A DNA stretch of 64,000 nucleotides from an uncultured bacterium (GTDB lineage Bacteria > Patescibacteriota > Patescibacteriia > Patescibacteriales > UBA12465): the NCBI GenBank assembly GCA_938003925.1, contig CALKWQ010000023.1:82885-146884 (forward strand). Direction: 5' to 3'. The translations under genes were made by a program, and so were the position numbers. Of the stretch, positions 5,253 through 52,810 are shown one piece after another. The first letter of the stretch is position 1, and each line of letters opens with the position of its first letter. The notes below the pieces were generated by a model. That model searched no databases. It was not told where the DNA came from and saw only the letters and a list, made by a program, of their open reading frames with translations.

Positions 5253-5651
5253 ATGCTTTGCTCTAAAATAGCTAGAAGCGTATCCTTTTTTATCTTAACT
5301 AGCCTGCTGACAGCTGGTTTTTTTAGTATCGCCCCTACAGCTTCGGCAGACGATGATTACGGGCTAACGACCAGCGCTGGTAAAGTTAGCGCCTTCTCTA
5401 ATCAAATAGCTAATTATAATGACAATTTCTTAAGCACTCGTGCAGGTGTGATTATTGGCATAATTTTATCATTTGTCGGAGTTATCTTTTTAGTGCTCAT
5501 GATTTATGCTGGCTTAATGTGGATGACAGCCCAAGGCAATCAAGAAAGAGTAAACAAAGCGAAAGACCTAATGATTAATGCGGTTATTGGTTTAATCATC
5601 GTCATGGCTGCTTATGCTATTACTTCTTTTGTCGGCCAAAGATTAACTTAA
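5253..5651 (+). CDS. VirB2/TrbC-like small pilin, paralog 2
   Basis: LMWMTAQGNQERVNKAKDLMINAVIGLIIVMAAY; signal peptide; two TM helices. Confidence 0.65.
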   Translation: MLCSKIARSVSFFILTSLLTAGFFSIAPTASADDDYGLTTSAGKVSAFSNQIANYNDNFLSTRAGVIIGIILSFVGVIFLVLMIYAGLMWMTAQGNQERVNKAKDLMINAVIGLIIVMAAYAITSFVGQRLT

Positions 5652-5658
5652 TATTTCT

Positions 5659-6045
5659 ATGACCTTGCGCAAGCTGATTATTAGCACCTTCATGATGTTT
5701 GCCTTAATCTTTCCCATGAGTGGTGTCTTTGCTCAAACCTATAATTTTAACCAGAACAGTGGCCTTAACCATACCAGCAACACTGCCGGTTTTAATAGCA
5801 CTGACACCAGTCTAGAAAGATATATTACCATTATTATTAATATTATTCTTTCTTTATTGGGTGTAGTGTTTTTAGGTTTAATGATTTACGGCGGCATCGT
5901 GTGGATGACCGCTCAAGGCAATGAAGATAAGGTAAAAAAAGCCAAAGAGTTAATTACAGAAGCTGTTATTGGTTTAATTATTGTACTAGCTGCTTACGCT
6001 ATTACCTACTTTGTCCTTAAGTTAACTAGCGGCTCCTTGGTTTAA
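5659..6045 (+). CDS. VirB2/TrbC-like small pilin, paralog 3
   Basis: IVWMTAQGNEDKVKKAKELITEAVIGLIIVLAAY. 7-nt gap to the previous gene. Confidence 0.65.
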   Translation: MTLRKLIISTFMMFALIFPMSGVFAQTYNFNQNSGLNHTSNTAGFNSTDTSLERYITIIINIILSLLGVVFLGLMIYGGIVWMTAQGNEDKVKKAKELITEAVIGLIIVLAAYAITYFVLKLTSGSLV

Positions 6046-6054
6046 AAAATAAAA

Positions 6055-6444
6055 ATGACTAAAAATACTAAAAACCAATCTATTTTCTGGTCCACCTTAT
6101 CAATACTGTCTTTATTGCCAACAACAGCCTGGGCGGCCAACCTTCAGGATGCTTTTAAAAATGATAATTCTCCTCTAAAGGTGGCGGCTATCGGTGGTGG
6201 CATTTATCGTGAAGGCGTTATGCTAGAATCCATAGCCGGACAAATTATCACTGGCATTTTCTCTTTTTTGGGTATTATTTTTGTTGCTTTTACCATCTAT
6301 GGCGGCTTTCTCTACATGAATGCGCGTGGTAATGAGGAACAAACAAAAAAGGCCACCTCTATTATTACCCAAGCTTTAATCGGCTTAGTAATAATCTTAG
6401 CCGCCTACGCCATCACTTATTTTATTTTTAAATTCTTTGTCTAA
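6055..6444 (+). CDS. VirB2/TrbC-like small pilin, paralog 4
   Basis: FLYMNARGNEEQTKKATSIITQALIGLVIILAAY. Confidence 0.65.
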   Translation: MTKNTKNQSIFWSTLSILSLLPTTAWAANLQDAFKNDNSPLKVAAIGGGIYREGVMLESIAGQIITGIFSFLGIIFVAFTIYGGFLYMNARGNEEQTKKATSIITQALIGLVIILAAYAITYFIFKFFV

Positions 6445-6453
6445 TCATCTAGT

Positions 6454-6888
6454 ATGAAATTCAAAAACTTCAAGCCAGTAGCCACTCTTTTCGTTCTTAC
6501 TTTAGTGATGATTTTGCCTTATTTTGTGTTCGCCCAAGAAGCGCAAACCAACGGACAAGTCATTAACACTACCGGCCCCGCCAATCCCATCAACATGTTA
6601 CAAAATGTAGCCACCGGCAACAGCGGTCCTTATGGCTCTACCGATGAAAACACTTTGCCGACCATTTTGGGCTATATAATTAATGGCGCTTTAAGTTTAT
6701 TAGGTATCATCTTTATCGTCCTAATGGTCTTAGCTGGCTATAACTGGATGATGGCTTCCGGTAATGAGCAAAGAGTAGAAGAGGCTAAAGATACGATTAA
6801 ACGCGCTATCATTGGTCTAGTAATTGTCTTGGGATCATGGGCTATTTGGAACTTTATCTTATCCAATATCATTGAAAGACTAAAATAA
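6454..6888 (+). CDS. VirB2/TrbC-like small pilin, paralog 5
   Basis: YNWMMASGNEQRVEEAKDTIKRAIIGLVIVLGSW. Confidence 0.65.
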   Translation: MKFKNFKPVATLFVLTLVMILPYFVFAQEAQTNGQVINTTGPANPINMLQNVATGNSGPYGSTDENTLPTILGYIINGALSLLGIIFIVLMVLAGYNWMMASGNEQRVEEAKDTIKRAIIGLVIVLGSWAIWNFILSNIIERLK

Positions 6889-6889
6889 T

Positions 6890-7294
6890 ATGCGCACCCT
6901 CAAACATCTCATTGCCACTATCGCTTTAATCCTAATACCTCTAACTAGCGTTTGGGCTCAGACTGCTAGTAATACCCTAGTTGATACTATTAATAAGCCT
7001 ACTCAAACCATGCTCACCAAATCTGGTTTGGGTAATTTTTCCTTAGGAGTAGTGATTAAAATTGTAATTCAAGGCGCCTTAAGCCTGCTCGGTATTGTTT
7101 TCTTAGTTATTATTGTCTTCGCTGGCTATCGTTGGATGACTGCTGCCGGCAATGAGGATTCCATCAAGAAATCTCAAGACATGATTAAGCGCGCTATCAT
7201 TGGTCTGGTAATTATTTTTATGGCCTACGGTATCACCTATTTTGTCTTCCGCATGTTGCCATTTAGCGGCGGCGGCCAACCACCAGTTGGCTAA
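6890..7294 (+). CDS. VirB2/TrbC-like small pilin, paralog 6
   Basis: YRWMTAAGNEDSIKKSQDMIKRAIIGLVIIFMAY. 1-nt gap to paralog 5. Confidence 0.65.
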   Translation: MRTLKHLIATIALILIPLTSVWAQTASNTLVDTINKPTQTMLTKSGLGNFSLGVVIKIVIQGALSLLGIVFLVIIVFAGYRWMTAAGNEDSIKKSQDMIKRAIIGLVIIFMAYGITYFVFRMLPFSGGGQPPVG

Positions 7295-17771: not shown

Positions 17772-18704
17772 TTATTTAGAAGTAGTAATTTGAGGGGCGC
17801 CAGCTCCTTGTATATATTGATAAGCATATAGGGCCGCTGCGGTTGCCTGCCCCATGGCAATAGTAATTTGTTTAAACTCGCTTTGTACCACATCTCCTGC
17901 AGCAAACAAGCCTGGAGTAGAGGTCATAAATTTTTCATCAACCAATATCTGTGCTTGTTCATTACGTTGAACAAAATCTGCCACCAAGTCAGTACTGGCA
18001 ATGCGTCCAATTTCTACAAACACGCCATCTAAGGGCAAGGTTATAGTTTCTCCAACCTGATTTTGATAAACTAAGGCCTCGACTTTTTCTTGGCCTTGAA
18101 TCGATTGGAGTTGGGCCTGAGTAATAATTTCAATATTTTCTCTAGCTCTAACTTCAGCCACTAAAGAATCAAAAGCCTTAAAGGTTGCACTCCTAGCTAC
18201 TAGATAAACTTTAGAGGCAATCTTAGACATCACCTCGGCAGCATCAAAGGCGGAATTGCCACTGCCAACCACAGCTACAACCTTATTTCTAAACAAGGGT
18301 CCATCGCAATTAGCACAGTAAGACACCCCCTTACCGCTAAGCTCGACTTCACCAGGAATAGCCAGGCGACGAGGAGCTAAGCCCATGGCAATAATTACTG
18401 TTTTACTCTCATATTGCTCTTGATCGGTGAAAACCAAGAAAGTGCCATCCTCTTTTTTTTCTAATCTTTTTACTTCTTGATTCTTAATCTCTGCTCCAGA
18501 AGCAAGCACATGATCATTAAAACGAGTAATAAGCTCGAAATTACTAATACTATTAAAACCTGGATAATTTTCAATTTCTCCTGCCCAGATAATTTGACCA
18601 CCAGGCTCTTTGCCGATGATTAGGGTTTTCATTTCTCTGCGTGCTGCATAAATAGCAGCGGTAATACCAGCTGGGCCTTGCCCAATAATGATTGTGTCGT
18701 ACAT
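17772..18704 (-). CDS. trxB: thioredoxin-disulfide reductase
   Basis: FAD motif IIIGQGPAGITAAIYAAR, redox-active CANCDG, NADPH motif VVGSGNSAFDAA. Confidence 0.9.
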   Translation of the reverse strand: MYDTIIIGQGPAGITAAIYAARREMKTLIIGKEPGGQIIWAGEIENYPGFNSISNFELITRFNDHVLASGAEIKNQEVKRLEKKEDGTFLVFTDQEQYESKTVIIAMGLAPRRLAIPGEVELSGKGVSYCANCDGPLFRNKVVAVVGSGNSAFDAAEVMSKIASKVYLVARSATFKAFDSLVAEVRARENIEIITQAQLQSIQGQEKVEALVYQNQVGETITLPLDGVFVEIGRIASTDLVADFVQRNEQAQILVDEKFMTSTPGLFAAGDVVQSEFKQITIAMGQATAAALYAYQYIQGAGAPQITTSK

Positions 18705-18845
18705 AAAAAAATAATATTTTTAATTTGGTGAGAGACTATCATTATACTATTACTAAGCACAAAAAGCAAAAAGAGATATTTTATTAAATATTAGCCAATA
18801 AATATTATGATAAACCAATTTTATCTAATATTTAACAATAATAAT

Positions 18846-18955
18846 TGTTCTACGCAGAACATTATTACACATTAAACCCTGCTTTAGCTATTTGTTCTAC
18901 GTAGAACATTATTACACATTAAACCCCGCTTTAGCTATTTGTTCTACGTAGAACA
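18846..18955. repeat. 47-bp tandem direct repeat (2.3 units), each unit starting with a parS-like 16-bp palindrome
   Basis: Palindromes at 18846-18861 (TGTTCTACGCAGAACA, 1 mismatch), 18893-18908 and 18940-18955 (both perfect TGTTCTACGTAGAACA). Spacing is exactly 47 bp. Confidence 0.9.
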
Positions 18956-19030
18956 CCAGATAATCATTTACATTAGACAATTATTCAAAAATAAATACGG
19001 AGATTTAAAAATACTTATTAGTTGTAATAA

Positions 19031-19056
19031 TTTTTTGTTCTACGTAGAACAAAAAA
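19031..19056. repeat. parS-like palindrome, copy 4, embedded in a perfect 26-bp palindrome
   Basis: TTTTTTGTTCTACGTAGAACAAAAAA, with the core at 19036-19051. Confidence 0.9.
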
Positions 19057-19158
19057 TTCTACTGGAGTTAATAAATTTAAAAAATTATTTACCTTTATTT
19101 TATAATACATAGAAACTACTATTTATTAAATTAATATAATCAAAAATGTAATAAATTT

Positions 19159-19174
19159 TGTTCTAGACGGAACA
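19159..19174. repeat. degenerate parS-like copy 5
   Basis: TGTTCTAGACGGAACA: the outer arms are conserved and the centre is diverged. Confidence 0.5.
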
Positions 19175-19225
19175 ATTATTAAAAAATAAAAGCAGAGACA
19201 AGATTATCCTAGACTTAAAAAATAA

Positions 19226-19252
19226 TAACAAAAAACTGGCTTACGCCAGTTC
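19226..19252 (-). terminator. intrinsic terminator downstream of tRNA-Ala
   Basis: The minus strand reads AACTGGC-GTAA-GCCAGTT followed by TTTTT. Confidence 0.7.
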
Positions 19253-19258
19253 TGAATG

Positions 19259-19332
19259 TGGACCATAAGGGACTTGAACCCTTGACCTCTTCCATGCCAT
19301 GGAAGCGCTCTAGCCAACTGAGCTAATGGCCC
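19259..19332 (-). tRNA. tRNA-Ala (anticodon GGC)
   Basis: Acceptor GGGCCAT with a G3:U70 pair, anticodon stem CTTCC/GGAAG, 7-nt loop ATGGCAT giving GGC. Confidence 0.75.
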
Positions 19333-19337
19333 AAAAT

Positions 19338-19353
19338 TGTTCTACGTAGAACA
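19338..19353. repeat. parS-like palindrome, copy 6, 5 nt upstream of the tRNA-Ala 5' end
   Basis: Perfect TGTTCTACGTAGAACA. Confidence 0.9.
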
Positions 19354-19434
19354 AATATAAATATTTTTTATCTACTATATAATAACTTATTTTCTAAAAA
19401 AGTCAATAACAATAAAAAAGAATCTTTGTCAATA

Positions 19435-19509
19435 ATGGTGCCCTCGCCAGGAATCGAACCTGGATTTAGAACTTAGGAGATTCTTGTTTTATCCATTAAA
19501 CTACAAGGG
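19435..19509 (-). tRNA. tRNA-Arg (anticodon CCU), CCA encoded
   Basis: Acceptor GCCCTTG/CGAGGGC, anticodon stem AGAAT/GTTCT, loop CTCCTAA, T arm CCAGG-TTCGATT-CCTGG. Confidence 0.8.
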
Positions 19510-19595
19510 CGAGGTTAAGATAATAATAGCCGAAAAAAAAGATTTTGACAACCCTCGTCAATCTATTTTTTATTATAATAACATTAAATAAATTT

Positions 19596-19624
19596 TTGAC
19601 AAAGATGAAAATATATACTAAAAT
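19596..19624 (+). promoter_or_regulatory. sigma70-type promoter (TTGACA-17-TAAAAT) for the bactofilin gene
   Basis: Read directly from the sequence. Confidence 0.5.
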
Positions 19625-19702
19625 AAAATCAGTAAAATATTTAAGTAATTTCATTAAATATCAGTCTTAAAATTAAAAATCTGTCCCGATGGAGGAGGCG
19701 GA

Positions 19703-20116
19703 TTGTTTAAATTTATGTTTAATAAGGACAACAAATTAGAAAAATTCAAAGACGCTGAAACTATTATTGGCGCTTCCATTAAAGTTAAAGGCAATTTTAA
19801 TGGTCAAGGAGATATTGTAATTGAGGGCATGCTTGAGGGCTCACTTAAAACCGAAGCTAATGTTTTTATTGGTGAAAAAGCAAAAGTAAACGCCAATATT
19901 GAAGCTAGTGAAGCAATGATTAGTGGAGAAATAAGCGGTAATATAAAGATAAAAAAATATTTAGCTATTGGAAAAACAGCTAAGATTGGTGGAGATGTGC
20001 AGTGTGGCGAAATCTCTATCGAGCGCGGCGCCTCTATTACCGGACAAATCTTGGTCGCCACAGATGAAGTTAAAAAGAATGACAATAAAAAAATCAGACC
20101 TGAAGAAGAGGCCTAA
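19703..20116 (+). CDS. bactofilin (polymer-forming cytoskeletal protein)
   Basis: Beta-helical repeat pattern IKVKGNFNGQGDIVIEGMLEGSLKTEANVFIGEKAKVNANIEA... A TTG start sits 7 nt after the GGAGGAGG SD. Confidence 0.8.
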   Translation: MFKFMFNKDNKLEKFKDAETIIGASIKVKGNFNGQGDIVIEGMLEGSLKTEANVFIGEKAKVNANIEASEAMISGEISGNIKIKKYLAIGKTAKIGGDVQCGEISIERGASITGQILVATDEVKKNDNKKIRPEEEA

Positions 20117-22533: not shown

Positions 22534-22561
22534 TGTGGATAGCCTTTTTATCCCCTATAAT
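22534..22561 (+). promoter_or_regulatory. inverted pair of DnaA-box-like 9-mers abutting a TATAAT -10 upstream of dnaA
   Basis: TGTGGATAG (22534-22542, 8/9 to TGTGGATAA), TTATCCCCT (22548-22556, 7/9) and TATAAT (22556-22561). Confidence 0.5.
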
Positions 22562-22582
22562 AAAAGCATATATATTTACCTT

Positions 22583-23974
22583 ATGAATAATGAACAAATT
22601 TGGCAAGCGACTTTAGGAGAGTTAGAAATTAATTTATCTAGAGTTAATTTTGTTACTTGGTTTAAAGATACTTTTTTAGCTTCTTTTGAAAATGGGCGCG
22701 CTATTGTTTGTGTTCCTAATGCTTTTGTAAAAAAGTGGTTAGAAGAAAAATACCACAAGAACATTGTTAACTCTTTAGAAAATATTACGAAACAAAAATT
22801 ACAAGAGATTATCTATAAAATTGAATTACATCGTCCTGAAAAATCTAATTATGCCCAAAATCCAACAACAGAAAATATACCCCAAACAAACGTACAAGCT
22901 GAAGCAACCATTAAACCCTCAACCAACACCAATACTACTAACCGCTTTGGTCTAAACCCAAAATATGTATTTGAGAACTTTGTGGTTGGGCGTGGTAATG
23001 AATTAGCGCACGCAGCTTGTCGAGCGGTAGTTAATAATCTCGGCAAGGCTTATAACCCCCTCTTCATATATGGTGGCGTTGGTTTAGGAAAAACCCACCT
23101 ACTCCAAGCCATTGGTAACGAAGTGGCAAAGCATAACGATAAAATACTATATACCACCAGTGAAAAATTCACCAACAACTATATTCAGGCAGTGCAAACA
23201 GGTAAAGCTAAAGATTTTAAAAACATGTACCGCAATGTTGATTTACTTTTGGTTGATGATGTGCAGTTTATGGGCGGGAAAGATGGCACACAAGAAGAAT
23301 TTTTTCATACTTTTAACGAGCTTCAGCAGGGAGACAAGCAAATTGTTATGACTTCAGATCGTCCCCCAAAATCTATTCCCGCTATTGAAAAAAGGTTAAT
23401 TTCTCGTTTTGAATCAGGCATGGTGGCTGATGTGGGTAAACCAGACGTAGAAACAAAGATAGCAATTTTAGAAAAAAAATCTCTAGAAAAAAGTTTTCCC
23501 TTAGATAAAGATGTTTTAATTTATATAGCTAATAATGTCCAAAACAATATTCGTGAGTTAGAGGGTGCCCTAAATAAAGTGGTGGTAATCCATCAATTAA
23601 ATAATTCCGTCCCAACTCTTAAAAGTGTAAAAAATGCTCTTAGCGATTATGTTTCTAGTTTGCAGGTTAAATCTTTGAGTCCTAAGGATATTATTGAAGC
23701 TGTGGCCAGATTTTATGATGTTAATATTAAGGATTTAATTGGTAATAGCCGTCGTAAAGAATTGGTTGGCCCCAGACAGGCCGCTATTTATTTGATAAGA
23801 GAGGAGCTTAACACCTCTTATCCCAGTATCGGCCAAGAAATGGGTGGCCGCGATCACACCACCGCCATGCACGCCTACAATAAAATTCTAAACGAGATTA
23901 AGGAGAATGAAAATGAAAAGCTAAAACAAGAGCTGGAGTCTATCAAACAATTATTTACAAGCTCCCCGTATTAA
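22583..23974 (+). CDS. dnaA: chromosomal replication initiator DnaA
   Basis: Walker A GGVGLGKTHL, LLVDDVQF, the AAA+ sensor and the C-terminal DNA-binding RDHTTAMHA. The track GTG at 22535 lies inside a DnaA box, so I use the ATG at 22583. Confidence 0.93.
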   Translation: MNNEQIWQATLGELEINLSRVNFVTWFKDTFLASFENGRAIVCVPNAFVKKWLEEKYHKNIVNSLENITKQKLQEIIYKIELHRPEKSNYAQNPTTENIPQTNVQAEATIKPSTNTNTTNRFGLNPKYVFENFVVGRGNELAHAACRAVVNNLGKAYNPLFIYGGVGLGKTHLLQAIGNEVAKHNDKILYTTSEKFTNNYIQAVQTGKAKDFKNMYRNVDLLLVDDVQFMGGKDGTQEEFFHTFNELQQGDKQIVMTSDRPPKSIPAIEKRLISRFESGMVADVGKPDVETKIAILEKKSLEKSFPLDKDVLIYIANNVQNNIRELEGALNKVVVIHQLNNSVPTLKSVKNALSDYVSSLQVKSLSPKDIIEAVARFYDVNIKDLIGNSRRKELVGPRQAAIYLIREELNTSYPSIGQEMGGRDHTTAMHAYNKILNEIKENENEKLKQELESIKQLFTSSPY

Positions 23975-24236
23975 TGTGGAAGATGTGTGTATAAATTACA
24001 AAAAACTGATGATAACCATGTGATTAAACGACTAATAATAAGTTCAGAAAACGGACTATTAACACAACCCCATTCAATATTAACAAAACAATCTTGTGGT
24101 TTGCCCCGTTAATTAATAGTTTAAAACACAGGCAAATATATTTAATAATAGCTAATAAAAAGCTTAAAAAATTTTTCTCCACAAGCATTATTATTACTAT
24201 TATTAAAATATATATAAATTATATAATATAATAAAT
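23975..24236. other. putative oriC (dnaA-dnaN intergenic region: DnaA-box-like 9-mers plus an AT-only unwinding stretch)
   Basis: TGTGGAAGA 23975-23983, TGTGTATAA 23986-23994 (8/9), TGTGGTTTG 24095-24103, TTCTCCACA 24175-24183 (8/9). 24187-24236 consists of A and T only. Confidence 0.6.
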
Positions 24237-30762: not shown

Positions 30763-30777
30763 GTAACTCAAAAAGCT

Positions 30778-30810
30778 AAAGCCTGTGATTTTACATCGCA
30801 GGCTTTTTTA
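30778..30810 (+). terminator. intrinsic terminator of the cassette 1 gene
   Basis: GCCTGTGAT-TTTAC-ATCGCAGGC followed by TTTTTT. Confidence 0.75.
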
Positions 30811-30815
30811 TATCA

Positions 30816-30869
30816 ATTTACCAAATATTCCATCAAAACAGTTTTCCAAGTTTTGCGTTTAGCCACCCC
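30816..30869 (+). repeat. 54-nt junction repeat R, copy a
   Basis: ATTTACCAAATATTCCATCAAAACAGTTTTCCAAGTTTTGCGTTTAGCCACCCC. The last 10 nt match the tRNA-His 3' end at 9/10. Confidence 0.9.
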
Positions 30870-30875
30870 AGTTGG

Positions 30876-30903
30876 AAAAGACGAGTCTAAAAGCTCGTTT
30901 TTC
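30876..30903 (+). terminator. type-B hairpin/terminator (left end of cassette 2)
   Basis: ACGAG-TCTAAAAG-CTCGT followed by TTTTT. Copy at 32100-32128. Confidence 0.55.
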
Positions 30904-30954
30904 TGTTATATAATGGCAAAAATATGGTTTGCGAGAATTGACAATCTGAATTAA

Positions 30955-30983
30955 TTGACAAAAGACAATTAATATGATATACT
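30955..30983 (+). promoter_or_regulatory. cassette 2 promoter (TTGACA-17-TATACT)
   Basis: Read directly. A second TTGACA lies at 30938. Confidence 0.55.
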
Positions 30984-31092
30984 CTTATGTTATATAGTTC
31001 ATTCACAAGAAATAATAAGGTTAATTATCAAGTTTATTATAATTAGTAGATTTAACAATTAATCTTATTATTTAACATAAATATAAATAAAA

Positions 31093-31251
31093 ATGGAATT
31101 ATCATTAATTATCCTGGCAAACATAAGCTCAGGGTTTACTTTGTATTTTGCTATCAAAAAGCAAACCAAAAAAACATGGATTGCTTGGACTTTTACAGTC
31201 GTCTTTATCCTGGCTGTATTAGGACTACAAACACTTGGACTGCGATGGTAA
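31093..31251 (+). CDS. 52-aa two-TM membrane peptide (below the track cutoff)
   Basis: My translation: MELSLIILANISSGFTLYFAIKKQTKKTWIAWTFTVVFILAVLGLQTLGLRW. Promoter upstream and terminator downstream. Confidence 0.45.
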   Translation: MELSLIILANISSGFTLYFAIKKQTKKTWIAWTFTVVFILAVLGLQTLGLRW

Positions 31252-31276
31252 ATTTAATGACCTCCTCCCCGCACTC

Positions 31277-31306
31277 AAAAAGCTATCCTAATCGGATAGC
31301 TTTTTT
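31277..31306 (+). terminator. intrinsic terminator
   Basis: AGCTATCC-TAATC-GGATAGCT followed by TTTTTT. Confidence 0.75.
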
Positions 31307-31440
31307 CATACGGGGTTTCCTTTCGGGTCACGCTTCGCGTTAAGGCCTCCGCAATACTACGGGCGTCATTCATCCCCGCACTCGCGCTCCCGCTTCGCGG
31401 TTCGCCAATGAATACTCGTGCGGGGTTTCCTGACTATTTA
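31307..31440. other. GC-rich island with interleaved direct and inverted repeats (candidate structured RNA or recombination scar)
   Basis: CCCCGCACTC twice (31267, 31374), CGGGGTTTCCT twice (31311, 31421), CGCTTCGCG twice (31331, 31391). GTGCGGGG (31418) is complementary to both CCCCGCAC copies. Confidence 0.4.
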
Positions 31441-31447
31441 AAAACAC

Positions 31448-31480
31448 GTCCTGAATATTAAATTAATTCAGGACTTTTTA
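31448..31480. terminator. intrinsic terminator preceding R copy b
   Basis: GTCCTGAAT-loop-ATTCAGGAC followed by TTTTT. Confidence 0.7.
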
Positions 31481-31534
31481 ATTTACCAAATAATCTATCA
31501 AAAAAGTTTTCCAAGTTTTGCACTTAGCCACCCC
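31481..31534 (+). repeat. 54-nt junction repeat R, copy b
   Basis: 5 differences from copy a over 54 nt. Ends in TTAGCCACCCC. Confidence 0.9.
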
Positions 31535-31549
31535 TAAAGGGAATGTATG

Positions 31550-31584
31550 AAAATAACTCTAATATTAGAGTTATTTTTATTTTA
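31550..31584 (+). terminator. type-A hairpin/terminator (left end of cassette 3)
   Basis: Same hairpin as 30231-30264. Confidence 0.75.
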
Positions 31585-31618
31585 GACTAGCTAAACCACC
31601 AATGGGAAGACAAACTAA

Positions 31619-31647
31619 TTGACAAAATTAAATCAATGTGTTATAGT
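31619..31647 (+). promoter_or_regulatory. cassette 3 promoter (TTGACA-17-TATAGT)
   Basis: Read directly. Confidence 0.55.
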
Positions 31648-31741
31648 GTTTTGTTACACAGTTCATTTACAAATAACAATTAGGTTAATTATCAAGTTTA
31701 TTATAATTAATAGATTTAATAATTAACCTAAATTAGTAATA

Positions 31742-31981
31742 ATGGAAACACAAGAAAAAAAAGCCGATGGCATTGGCCCAGGCACGGCAGTAATCATTTT
31801 TATTGGGTTGGTTATTTGGGGTTCGATAGAATCCAAATATATGCCCTTGAAAGGGTTTAGATCGCTTTTCGATAACACCTGGATGTTAATCGAAGAAGTG
31901 TTTCTCCCGGCACTGCTGATCTCAATAATAGCGGGAATTTTTATTTCCCTGGCGGCCCACCTGATATACAGGGAGTTATAA
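31742..31981 (+). CDS. 79-aa two-TM membrane protein, unknown function
   Basis: Track ORF with two hydrophobic helices. Preceded by the shared leader and followed by a terminator. Confidence 0.5.
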   Translation: METQEKKADGIGPGTAVIIFIGLVIWGSIESKYMPLKGFRSLFDNTWMLIEEVFLPALLISIIAGIFISLAAHLIYREL

Positions 31982-32005
31982 TTTTTACTGCTAAAAGTTT
32001 TTGTT

Positions 32006-32034
32006 AAAGGAGCTAAGAAATTAGCTCTTTTTTA
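32006..32034 (+). terminator. intrinsic terminator of the cassette 3 gene
   Basis: GAGCTAA-GAAA-TTAGCTC followed by TTTTTT. Confidence 0.7.
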
Positions 32035-32039
32035 TATCA

Positions 32040-32093
32040 ATTTACCAAACATTCAATCAAAATAGTTTTCCAAGTTTTGTAGTTAGTTACCCC
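32040..32093 (+). repeat. 54-nt junction repeat R, copy c
   Basis: 8 differences from copy a. Ends in TTAGTTACCCC. Confidence 0.9.
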
Positions 32094-32099
32094 AGCTGG

Positions 32100-32128
32100 A
32101 AAAGACGAGTCTAAAAGCTCGTTTTTTT
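32100..32128 (+). terminator. type-B hairpin/terminator (left end of cassette 4)
   Basis: Same hairpin as 30876-30903. Confidence 0.55.
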
Positions 32129-32202
32129 GTTATATAAGAGAGAAAATATGGTTTGCCAAAATAATTTATTGACATTTTTAGATGATTTGTTAAAGTATAA
32201 TC

Positions 32203-32313
32203 CTTCCAATCAGTGTAGGATAAAACCGAACAACGAGGCGCAAGTGGGCGCCTACAAGAGTTTAAAAAACTTAGAGACTGATTGCCATAGAGATCTTAAT
32301 TGATCTCTTTTTA
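32203..32313 (+). ncRNA. candidate small RNA (promoter-to-terminator unit); the alternative reading is a 51-aa ORF at 32148-32303
   Basis: TTGACA at 32169 with TAAAGT/TATAAT 16-21 nt later. Outer stem CAATCAG (32207) / CTGATTG (32278) encloses the GC hairpin AGGCGC-AAGTGG-GCGCCT (32236-32253). Terminator AGAGATC-TTAATT-GATCTCT followed by TTTTT (32289-32313). Confidence 0.3.
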
Positions 32314-32319
32314 TTTATT

Positions 32320-32373
32320 TAAAATCAAATACTCCATCAAAATAGTTTTCCAAGTTTTGCGATTAGCCGCCCA
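32320..32373 (+). repeat. 54-nt junction repeat R, copy d (most diverged)
   Basis: The core ATCAAAATAGTTTTCCAAGTTTTGCGATTAGCCGCCC is conserved and the 5' part has diverged. Confidence 0.8.
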
Positions 32374-32378
32374 TCAAG

Positions 32379-32407
32379 AATAACCCAATTTTAAAGGGTT
32401 ATTTTTA
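32379..32407 (+). terminator. type-C hairpin/terminator after R copy d (possibly the ancestral tRNA-His terminator)
   Basis: AATAACCC-loop-GGGTTATT followed by TTTT. Confidence 0.65.
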
Positions 32408-32472
32408 TTAGTATTAATATAGTTTATATCTTTTTTGTGGATGGGGTATAATGAAGGTGTAAATAGTAAAAT

Positions 32473-38674: not shown

Positions 38675-39805
38675 TTATTGGCGGCGCAGGTAAAGAATAA
38701 AGGCGCCCACTCCCATACTAATTGCTGCTAAGGATAATAACCAGCCGGCATAAGGTAGCGCAAAGAGTAAATAGGCAATAATAATGCCGCCAATCATCGC
38801 TAAATATAAGTTGTTAGTAATTGGTTGTTTTTTGGCTACAGTCTTAAGGAGAAATTGCCCGATGAAAATAGCGCCAACCACCTCTCCCATCCATAAAGAC
38901 ATTAACCATAGCCCCAGTAAGACCAAAGATAGCGGCAAACCAATCACAGTAATCATTAGTAAGATGGCTACGACTGGTATAATTAAGACTAAAATCAGTC
39001 CCCAAATAAGGCTGGTTAGAGTTTTTTCTTGAGCCGTATGATACATACCCATTAGGATATTTTTCCCTGGACCGATTAAAATGAGGCCGACCAAGATGGC
39101 GGCTAGCATATTATATAGAAAGGGCCAGATGCGATCAGAAGTTTTATTGTTCTGAGTGGAAGGCTCTAGTTGTTTAATTTCCCCGGTTACCGTAGCTCCG
39201 TCTTCTAATTCTAATTTACCGTTGGCCTGGTAATAAAGGTGTCCACTAATCTTAGCGCTGGGCGTGAGAGTAATATTTTGTGTTCGTTGGCTGCCGCGAA
39301 AATTAAAATCTTTACCAATACTACCAGCCACTAACAGATAGTCACTGCTGCCGTAAACACTGCCCCCAACTGTGCCCATAATTTCTGTACTGGCAGCACC
39401 GCTTAAGACATCCCAACCAATTTTAGCTTCAGGCCCCAAAATTATAGTGTTGCCAATAAAATTGACGTTTCTGGCCACCTGACCCTGAATATTAGCACTA
39501 TTGGCAGCAACACGAACATTGCCATTAATTTCACCGTTAACAGTAATAGTTTGAGCAGCGGCGATTAAATCGCCATCTAGGCGACCATTGATAGTAATGG
39601 TTTGAGCTGCAGCGATTAAGTCGCCTTTGATTTCTCCATCAACTGTGATATTGTTGCTGGCGGCATAGAGATTGCCCTCAATAGTTTCGTTGGCGGACAA
39701 ATAAATGTTTTCTCCCGATTTAACTTCAGCCGCTTGAGTTAGATGGGGCCAAAATAGGATAAGAGCGGCTGTTAGCATCAATAATTGGTTAATTTTTTTG
39801 GTCAT
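38675..39805 (-). CDS. exported bactofilin-like beta-helix repeat protein fused to a C-terminal multi-TM domain
   Basis: Signal peptide (LTQAAEV), tandem repeats GDLIAAAQTITINGRLDGDLIAAAQTITVNGEINGNVRVAA, then 5-6 TM helices. Confidence 0.55.
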   Translation of the reverse strand: MTKKINQLLMLTAALILFWPHLTQAAEVKSGENIYLSANETIEGNLYAASNNITVDGEIKGDLIAAAQTITINGRLDGDLIAAAQTITVNGEINGNVRVAANSANIQGQVARNVNFIGNTIILGPEAKIGWDVLSGAASTEIMGTVGGSVYGSSDYLLVAGSIGKDFNFRGSQRTQNITLTPSAKISGHLYYQANGKLELEDGATVTGEIKQLEPSTQNNKTSDRIWPFLYNMLAAILVGLILIGPGKNILMGMYHTAQEKTLTSLIWGLILVLIIPVVAILLMITVIGLPLSLVLLGLWLMSLWMGEVVGAIFIGQFLLKTVAKKQPITNNLYLAMIGGIIIAYLLFALPYAGWLLSLAAISMGVGAFILYLRRQ

Positions 39806-52369: not shown

Positions 52370-52810
52370 ATGCGCATTGCTACGAAAAAATCTTGGTTAC
52401 TGATTGCTGGTTTAACGTTAAGTTTATTACAGCTCAGTTTTGTCTTAGTAACGACACCGGTAGGAGCCCAAGAGAATCATTTGCTGCAAAGCCAGGAAGG
52501 CTTTCAAAATAACGAAATCCAATCCGCTTTTACCAATGAGGAGCCAGAAGATATAAGAGTGACAGTTGTACGAATCATTAATATAGTGTTGTCTGTTGTT
52601 GGGGTGGTGTTTTTAATCTTAATTGTTCTGGCAGGCTTTAAATATATGACCGCCGCTGGCAACGAAGACCAGGTAAGTACGGCTGTTAAGCAGATTACCC
52701 AAGCAGTTATTGGTTTTGTGATTATCGCTTCCGCTTGGGGCGTCAGTTATTTTATCTTGCTCCGTATCAGCGCAGCTGCTAGTGGTGCCACTAATTATTT
52801 GTATTTCTAA
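52370..52810 (+). CDS. VirB2/TrbC-like small pilin, dispersed paralog
   Basis: FKYMTAAGNEDQVSTAVKQITQAVIGFVIIASAW. Confidence 0.65.
   Translation: MRIATKKSWLLIAGLTLSLLQLSFVLVTTPVGAQENHLLQSQEGFQNNEIQSAFTNEEPEDIRVTVVRIINIVLSVVGVVFLILIVLAGFKYMTAAGNEDQVSTAVKQITQAVIGFVIIASAWGVSYFILLRISAAASGATNYLYF

Follow-up and report, generated by a model that had tools for sequence, protein, structure and literature searches.

The canonical chromosomal parS site, tGTTNCACGTGAAACa, which is bound by Spo0J/ParB in Bacillus subtilis and Caulobacter crescentus, is a 16-bp dyad with TGTT/AACA ends and a central ACGT, and it occurs near oriC in few copies per genome. In Myxococcus xanthus, a BacNOP-PadC scaffold positions the ParB-parS complexes, and PadC is a ParB-like CTPase for which the protein interaction has been demonstrated. 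In Bdellovibrio bacteriovorus, parS is TGTTCCACGTGGAACA; binding of this sequence by ParB is specific and depends on CTP, and the gene after parB, bd3904, encodes a bactofilin (Kaljevic et al. 2023, PMC10547168). Because the ParB of B. bacteriovorus does not bind the parS site of Caulobacter (PMC10547168), small differences between sites can matter. Here we describe six copies of a related 16-bp palindrome, TGTTCTACGTAGAACA, that are clustered beside a bactofilin gene in a 64,000-nucleotide stretch of DNA (hereafter the window) from an uncultured member of the Patescibacteriota (contig CALKWQ010000023.1, positions 82,885 to 146,884; assembly GCA_938003925.1). These palindromes probably constitute a parS array near the origin onto which a ParB, encoded elsewhere in the genome, is loaded.

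Like canonical parS, the palindrome of the window is a 16-bp dyad with TGTT/AACA ends and a central ACGT, lies near the origin, and is probably present in few copies per genome; it belongs to the same sequence family. It differs in having T instead of C at position 6, a change that is mirrored at position 11, and in the much greater density of the array. The palindrome matches the canonical sequence TGTTTCACGTGAAACA at 12 of 16 positions, or 13 of 16 if the consensus carries N at position 5, in agreement with the preliminary description of this DNA. Identity with the validated Bdellovibrio site reaches 14 of 16 positions, with one transition per half-site. The Bdellovibrio locus likewise is origin proximal and has a bactofilin gene in its neighborhood, and other Bdellovibrionota metagenome-assembled genomes (MAGs) hold both sequences together upstream of parA. 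However, the two Bdellovibrio sites lie directly upstream of parAB, whereas the window has six sites, a bactofilin gene, and a DAGK-like gene but no parAB, and the binding of ParB that has been shown in Bdellovibrio is a prediction for the window. As in Myxococcus, a bactofilin would be associated with a segregation centromere, but the link in the window consists of a conserved adjacency of gene and sites, and the operon partner has a DAGK_cat fold and is not ParB-like.

A cluster of six parS-type palindromes

Reading of the sequence and a pattern search both placed exact copies of TGTTCTACGTAGAACA at 18893 to 18908 (site 2), 18940 to 18955 (site 3), 19036 to 19051 (site 4), and 19338 to 19353 (site 6); no strand is assigned to any of the sites. 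Site 1 (18846 to 18861), TGTTCTACGCAGAACA, has one mismatch against the perfect palindrome, and site 5 (19159 to 19174), TGTTCTAGACGGAACA, has four central mismatches with intact arms, so that all six copies named in the preliminary description were recovered as it gave them. The degenerate center of site 5 breaks the rule of Y at position 8 and R at position 9 that is found in the sites of relatives. At site 4, the dyad runs on into the flanks to a total of 30 bp (AATTTTTTGTTCTAC/GTAGAACAAAAAATT). Site 6 lies between two tRNA genes, 5 bp upstream of the mature 5' end of tRNA-Ala, and it occupies the position that is most often kept in relatives.

The number of copies far exceeded the chance level. 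With up to three mismatches to TGTTCTACGTAGAACA, five matches were found in 64 kb (0.22 expected), and none of 100 shuffled sequences gave five; a search with TGTTCYNNNNRGAACA that allowed one mismatch returned exactly these six sites and no further copy elsewhere in the 64-kb window (0.48 expected), a count that no shuffle equalled. The start-to-start distances of the six sites are 47, 47, 96, 123, and 179 bp. Sites 1 and 2 belong to a tandem duplication at 18842 to 18935 (forward strand), in which two 47-bp units, each a site plus its spacer, are 94% identical (repeat family D3). This pair of units is a recent local duplication that enlarged the array, indicating that the array grows by tandem duplication.

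The same palindrome beside parAB operons in other phyla

A scan of GTDB genomes (one genome per species, blocks of up to 8 kb) for the exact 16-mer yielded at least 119 loci. Homologs of ParA and/or ParB were encoded within 2.5 kb of the 16-mer in 31 of the 119 loci listed, and these came from at least four phyla and included Bdellovibrionota, Acidobacteriota (Terriglobia), Clostridia, and an Elusimicrobia MAG; the assignment of the palindrome to the parS family in the preliminary description thereby gained support. In the parAB-linked loci listed, the 16-mer usually lies 10 to 110 bp upstream of parA, its ACGT center is almost invariant, and TGTTCTACGTAGAACA alternates with TGTTCCACGTGGAACA within the same spacer. 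Since TGTTCCACGTGGAACA has been validated in B. bacteriovorus, TGTTCTACGTAGAACA represents natural variation (C/T) at position 6 of a proven parS, and because the same sequence stands beside parAB operons in other phyla, the six palindromes of the window are most likely ParB loading sites. Position 6 is simply Y for the ParB proteins of these phyla, as the two forms share one spacer. The mirrored TC-to-CT change had been read as the pattern expected of a coevolved ParB, an explanation that this sharing makes unnecessary; the sequence falls within the natural range of parS and is at most a mild variant of the chromosomal site. No record of the exact TGTTCTACGTAGAACA was found in the literature searched.

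Eight Bdellovibrionota loci among the matches listed have the gene order parA-parB-bactofilin. An A-rich flank, AAW-TGTTC, is common to the Patescibacteria sites and to the copies in Acidobacteria, including those upstream of parA. Two GC-rich Acidobacteriaceae MAGs, CAVTMX01 and CAVQLZ01, each contain at least seven separate loci with the exact 16-mer (L002 to L004, L045, L062, L063, L071, L082, L085, L099, L103, and L109), always within AAAAW...WTTTT flanks and with extra tandem GTAGAACA half-sites in L002 and L082. Only one locus per genome adjoins parA, and the other copies could be dispersed parS sites or could have a second function. In IMG/VR, at least 120 viral contigs (L207 to L326) carry one exact copy of the palindrome each, which is above chance by a rough estimate; no ParA and only two weak ParB-like matches were found near the palindrome in the contigs listed. 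These viral copies give no information on the window.

Conservation of the sites in Patescibacteria

Relatives of the window genome accounted for about nineteen of the 119 GTDB blocks listed, and the closest of them place the organism in Patescibacteria. Some of these relatives were themselves placed in Patescibacteria by 50 to 90% protein identity and shared synteny, and they carry 1 to 11 sites beside the same bactofilin/DAGK-like pair. Seven of the blocks (L008, L061, L072, L059, L106, L112, and L115) bear the GenBank title "uncultured Gammaproteobacteria" although their genes are 50 to 90% identical to and syntenic with those of the window; the labels on these MAGs are probably wrong. On a 740-kb contig of one relative, a single match block was found among the matches listed.

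Eighty metagenome loci listed (990 kb in total) were fetched by means of a bactofilin alignment and are therefore free of bias from selection by the motif. In this set, 159 of 166 TGTTCYNNNNRGAACA sites (96%) fell in the 1.6 kb upstream of the bactofilin gene, a zone that makes up 11.5% of the 990 kb. At least one site was present in 62 of the 71 loci with enough upstream sequence, the mode being two, and in nearly every case one site is found in the interval from tRNA-Arg(cct) to tRNA-Ala(ggc) or just past tRNA-Ala. The bactofilin neighborhood pointed out in the preliminary description is thus conserved across Patescibacteria and is not accidental.

Site number in Patescibacteria relatives ranges from 1 to 12, all within the family TGTTCY-N4-RGAACA. 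In close relatives, whose bactofilin is at least about 80% identical, there are 4 to 12 copies with R-Y-R-Y centers (for example, ACGT, GCGT, and ACAT), and in more distant relatives, whose bactofilin is 60 to 70% identical, there are 1 to 3 copies with T-Y-R-A centers (for example, TTAA, TCAA, and TTGA). In still more distant classes (L088, L089, and L120), TGTTCCACGTGGAACA is mixed with the variant of the window in the same synteny, including one 10-copy array. In a second group (L048, L061, L072, L104, L005, and L059), the DAGK-like gene and yidC converge, and the array is located between their 3' ends. The pooled half-site consists of an A-rich flank followed by T-G-T-T-C-Y-D-Y, which gives the degenerate consensus TGTTCYDYRHRGAACA, and the validated Bdellovibrio parS fits this consensus. 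Even among close relatives the array region is not colinear; the spacers cannot be aligned and the 16-mers alone recur, so that the 16-mers represent a phylogenetic footprint.

These comparisons also bear on two other kinds of site. What distinguishes parS from the Noc-binding site (NBS) is the base at position 6 in the numbering of Jalal et al. 2020 (PMC7383237), which is position 7 here. The sister-clade variants change this discriminating base, where the specificity of the ParB family evolves; unlike NBS, however, the sites of the window family keep the parS-like G at position 2 and are gathered at a single locus, whereas NBS are dispersed along the chromosome. The preliminary description had likened the dense array to a plasmid centromere, and the close spacing of copies within about 0.5 kb and the tandem growth do recall F sopC and the iterated parS/parC sites of low-copy plasmids. 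In contrast to those arrays, the element is chromosomal, lies in conserved synteny with core genes, has no adjacent partition genes, and is of the chromosomal parS sequence type. Such density is confined to this clade, and since most relatives have one to three sites, the plasmid comparison adds little.

Position relative to the replication origin

The sites lie about 3.2 kb from the start of dnaA (22535 to 23974, forward strand), next to an rnpA-rpmH-dnaA-dnaN cluster. The cumulative GC skew of the window has its minimum at 19687 and a second, almost equal trough near 23 kb, and in relatives that keep dnaA nearby, the minimum is at the dnaA flanks, 3 to 5 kb from the sites. An origin-proximal position, as proposed in the preliminary description, is therefore found both in the window and in relatives.

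An oriC has several TTATCCACA-like DnaA boxes next to an AT-rich unwinding element, and no such box with one mismatch or fewer was found in the palindrome region, 18705 to 19702. Degenerate DnaA boxes flank dnaA, and several more, together with a pure A/T tract of about 45 bp, occur in the dnaA-dnaN spacer (23975 to 24236, no strand assigned), which is likely the oriC and is distinct from the palindrome array. From the boxes, the A/T tract, and the position of the skew minimum in relatives, the oriC is placed at dnaA, and the palindromes form an element of their own near the origin.

Many metagenome contigs of relatives, including L138, L142, L144, L149, L163, L170, L179, and L183, stop about 6.5 to 7 kb downstream of the bactofilin gene and have their GC-skew minimum there. 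This pattern suggests a repeated element that breaks the assembly at that point, possibly an rRNA operon.

Searches for ParA and ParB

Profile hidden Markov models (HMMs) were built from 19 ParB and 21 ParA sequences; the E-value limit was 1 in the window and in the GTDB loci and 0.01 in the metagenome loci. Neither the profile HMMs nor Pfam scans of the remaining open reading frames (ORFs) nor phmmer with B. subtilis Spo0J and Soj as queries gave a match in the 64-kb window, bearing out the earlier remark that no parA or parB gene lies there. Extension of the search to about 9 kb of flanking sequence (about 6 kb on the right and about 2.6 kb on the left), in a genome whose longest contig is 481 kb, also found no ParA or ParB. 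None of about 100 Patescibacteria loci encoded a ParA or ParB detectable by profile HMM within about 10 kb of the sites. When a protein database was searched with the ParB profile for a Patescibacteria ParB, the best 120 matches were from Clostridia only. One orphan ParB with an exact site 32 bp upstream (L050), considered as a possible Patescibacteria ParB, came from Elusimicrobia.

Genes and other features around the sites

The sites lie in a 998-bp noncoding, AT-rich region (18705 to 19702; about 32% GC) between a thioredoxin-reductase-like gene, trxB (17772 to 18704, reverse strand), which forms the left border, and the bactofilin gene. Two conserved landmarks, tRNA-Ala(ggc) (19258 to 19332) and tRNA-Arg(cct) (19436 to 19510), are encoded on the reverse strand of this region. 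The span of the sites themselves, 18846 to 19353, contains no protein gene, as the preliminary description stated, but of the two tRNA genes that it counted within the span only tRNA-Ala is inside, and tRNA-Arg is just outside. Directly after tRNA-Ala, an intrinsic-terminator-like hairpin (19232 to 19253, reverse strand) parts sites 1 to 5 from the tRNA transcription unit.

The neighboring gene is a bactofilin gene (PF04519), as had been stated earlier. It extends from 19715 to 20116 on the forward strand and encodes 133 amino acids from an ATG, the start form on record; an upstream TTG at 19703 is a possible alternative start. The protein has an N-terminal MFxK motif and, judging from other bactofilins, is presumably of the membrane type. 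Directly downstream is a DAGK_cat-family gene (PF00781; 20134 to 20877, forward strand), which is always co-oriented with and immediately after the bactofilin gene. Its product has VGNNET in place of the GGDGT nucleotide-binding motif of lipid and NAD kinases, and the proteins of relatives have VGNNxT, LGNDQT, or VGDDRT; this DAGK-like protein may be a noncatalytic partner of the bactofilin. The gene order downstream of the bactofilin gene is the DAGK_cat-family gene, yidC, yidD, rnpA, rpmH, dnaA, and dnaN.

Several further features were observed. Between tRNA-Arg and the bactofilin gene are divergent, near-consensus promoter-like elements (19596 to 19624 and 19523 to 19602), TTGACA-17-TAAAAT directed towards the bactofilin gene and TTGTCA-16/17-TATTAT towards tRNA-Arg, and five relatives have a related palindrome, TGTCAATATATTGACA, in this same interval. 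A second bactofilin-domain protein of 376 amino acids (38675 to 39805, reverse strand), with a signal-like N terminus and a multipass membrane C-terminal half, differs from the cytoplasmic bactofilin that adjoins the sites. Seven small paralogous T4SS_pilin (PF18895) genes are located at 879 to 1346, 5253 to 7294 (five in tandem), and 52370 to 52810. An interval of about 1.7 kb (30763 to 32472) has only ORFs of fewer than 80 amino acids and gave no Rfam match.

Discussion

The evidence favors the interpretation of the six palindromes as a chromosomal centromere of parS-type sites, about 3 to 5 kb from oriC, that in this clade was enlarged by tandem duplication; we regard this combined reading as the probable one. 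The genome is predicted to encode a ParB-family CTPase, away from the sites, that would bind them, close as a clamp, and spread, and the bound ParB would mark the origin region for segregation and/or for loading of SMC. The complex may be positioned, as in Myxococcus, by a scaffold made up of the neighboring membrane-type bactofilin and its DAGK-like partner. The gene neighborhood suggests a functional connection between bactofilin and centromere, since the linkage of the bactofilin and DAGK-like genes to the sites is strict in Patescibacteria and is paralleled by the parA-parB-bactofilin order in Bdellovibrionota. The Myxococcus-style mechanism cited in the preliminary description is an analogy whose support here is the gene neighborhood.

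Several points weigh against a ParB-loading array. Neither the window, nor about 9 kb of its flanks, nor about 1.2 Mb of DNA from the origin regions of about 100 Patescibacteria relatives yielded a ParA or ParB homolog; small genomes often lose ParB, and no description of ParABS in Patescibacteria, the Candidate Phyla Radiation (CPR), or Parcubacteria was found in the literature searched. The figures from the GTDB, metagenome, and viral scans cover the matches listed and are lower bounds. In addition, the center of the sites in the sister clade is TYRA (TTAA, TCAA, or TTGA) and not ACGT, and several center variants occur within single arrays. Such drift fits an evolving ParB, but it would equally fit a protein that reads only the TGTTCY arms. 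The lineage might be without canonical ParAB, the sites being orphan centromere-like elements read by another DNA-binding protein or a divergent ParB-like adaptor together with the bactofilin/DAGK-like pair. They would then form a ParB-independent centromere, positioned by the membrane-binding bactofilin and its pseudo-kinase-like partner, a minimal remnant of a segregation system perhaps derived from an ancestral parS-parA-parB-bactofilin cluster like that of Bdellovibrionota. The lack of ParA and ParB genes near the sites, the relaxed center in the sister clade, and the replacement of the Bdellovibrionota order sites-parA-parB-bactofilin by sites-(tRNAs)-bactofilin in Patescibacteria are all in keeping with such a history. 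We nevertheless consider it unlikely, as canonical-type arrays of up to 10 to 12 copies are clearly under selection across Patescibacteria classes, with a ParB as the simplest cause; in other bacteria, parS sites often lie apart from parB, and the search for ParAB reached only about 10 kb from the sites.

A regulatory role is, in our judgment, quite improbable. Invariant arms around four variable central base pairs are typical of dimeric regulators, and the TGTTCY half-sites, 4 bp apart, could form the operator of a helix-turn-helix factor (Xre, GntR, Crp, or Rex-like) that acts on the tRNA genes, trxB, or the bactofilin operon: one site, in the leader of tRNA-Ala, follows a promoter-like element, and the others are upstream of trxB. 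However, only site 6 is near such an element, and the best candidate for a trxB promoter, as judged by reading of the sequence, is more than 70 bp downstream of sites 1 to 5, which are also behind a strong terminator. The placement of the array between convergent genes in the second lineage, where no promoter is expected, argues against a transcriptional operator. Moreover, arrays of 6 to 12 sites are not operator-like, no gene for a regulator or other DNA-binding protein is conserved nearby in the window or in the flanks of relatives, no regulon is apparent (no other site in 64 kb and 96% of relatives' sites in one zone), and other phyla have the identical sequence beside parAB. LexA was set aside as the reader of the sites, the orientation of the arms being opposite to that of Gram-positive-type LexA boxes, GAAC-N4-GTTC. 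There is very little likelihood that the array belongs to the replication origin itself, for example as sites for an initiator or an origin regulator. The skew minimum at 19687 does coincide with the edge of the array in a region of 32% GC, but the DnaA boxes and the A/T tract are at dnaA and the dnaA-dnaN spacer, as is the skew minimum of relatives at the dnaA flanks, and the same 16-mer is found at parA promoters in other phyla. Equally remote is an origin as RNA hairpins, bidirectional terminators, or selfish repeats of the repetitive extragenic palindrome (REP) or miniature inverted-repeat transposable element (MITE) type. A 6-bp stem with a 4-nucleotide loop could form, and the flanking sequence is rich in A on one side and in T on the other; the stem, however, is weak and AT-rich, and the tRNAs were the sole Rfam matches in the region. 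At positions 6 and 11, the combination is C-G in 61 sites, T-A in 56, C-A in 32, and T-G in 24, and since the C-A mismatch is as frequent as the T-G wobble, each half-site chooses Y or R independently and not by compensatory pairing. Confinement to one locus, with conservation limited to the 16-mer, argues against a mobile repeat.

If a ParB is indeed encoded elsewhere in the genome, then the window holds an ordinary but previously unrecorded parS variant and array. Among the sites of this family, the base known to switch specificity between ParB and Noc has drifted naturally. Chromosome segregation in CPR/Patescibacteria was without a description in the literature searched, and the locus provides a concrete, conserved cis element for it. 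The interesting part of the locus is the conserved bactofilin linkage: it extends the connection between bactofilins and ParABS centromeres, as seen in Myxococcus and Bdellovibrio, to a third and very distant group and makes that connection testable.

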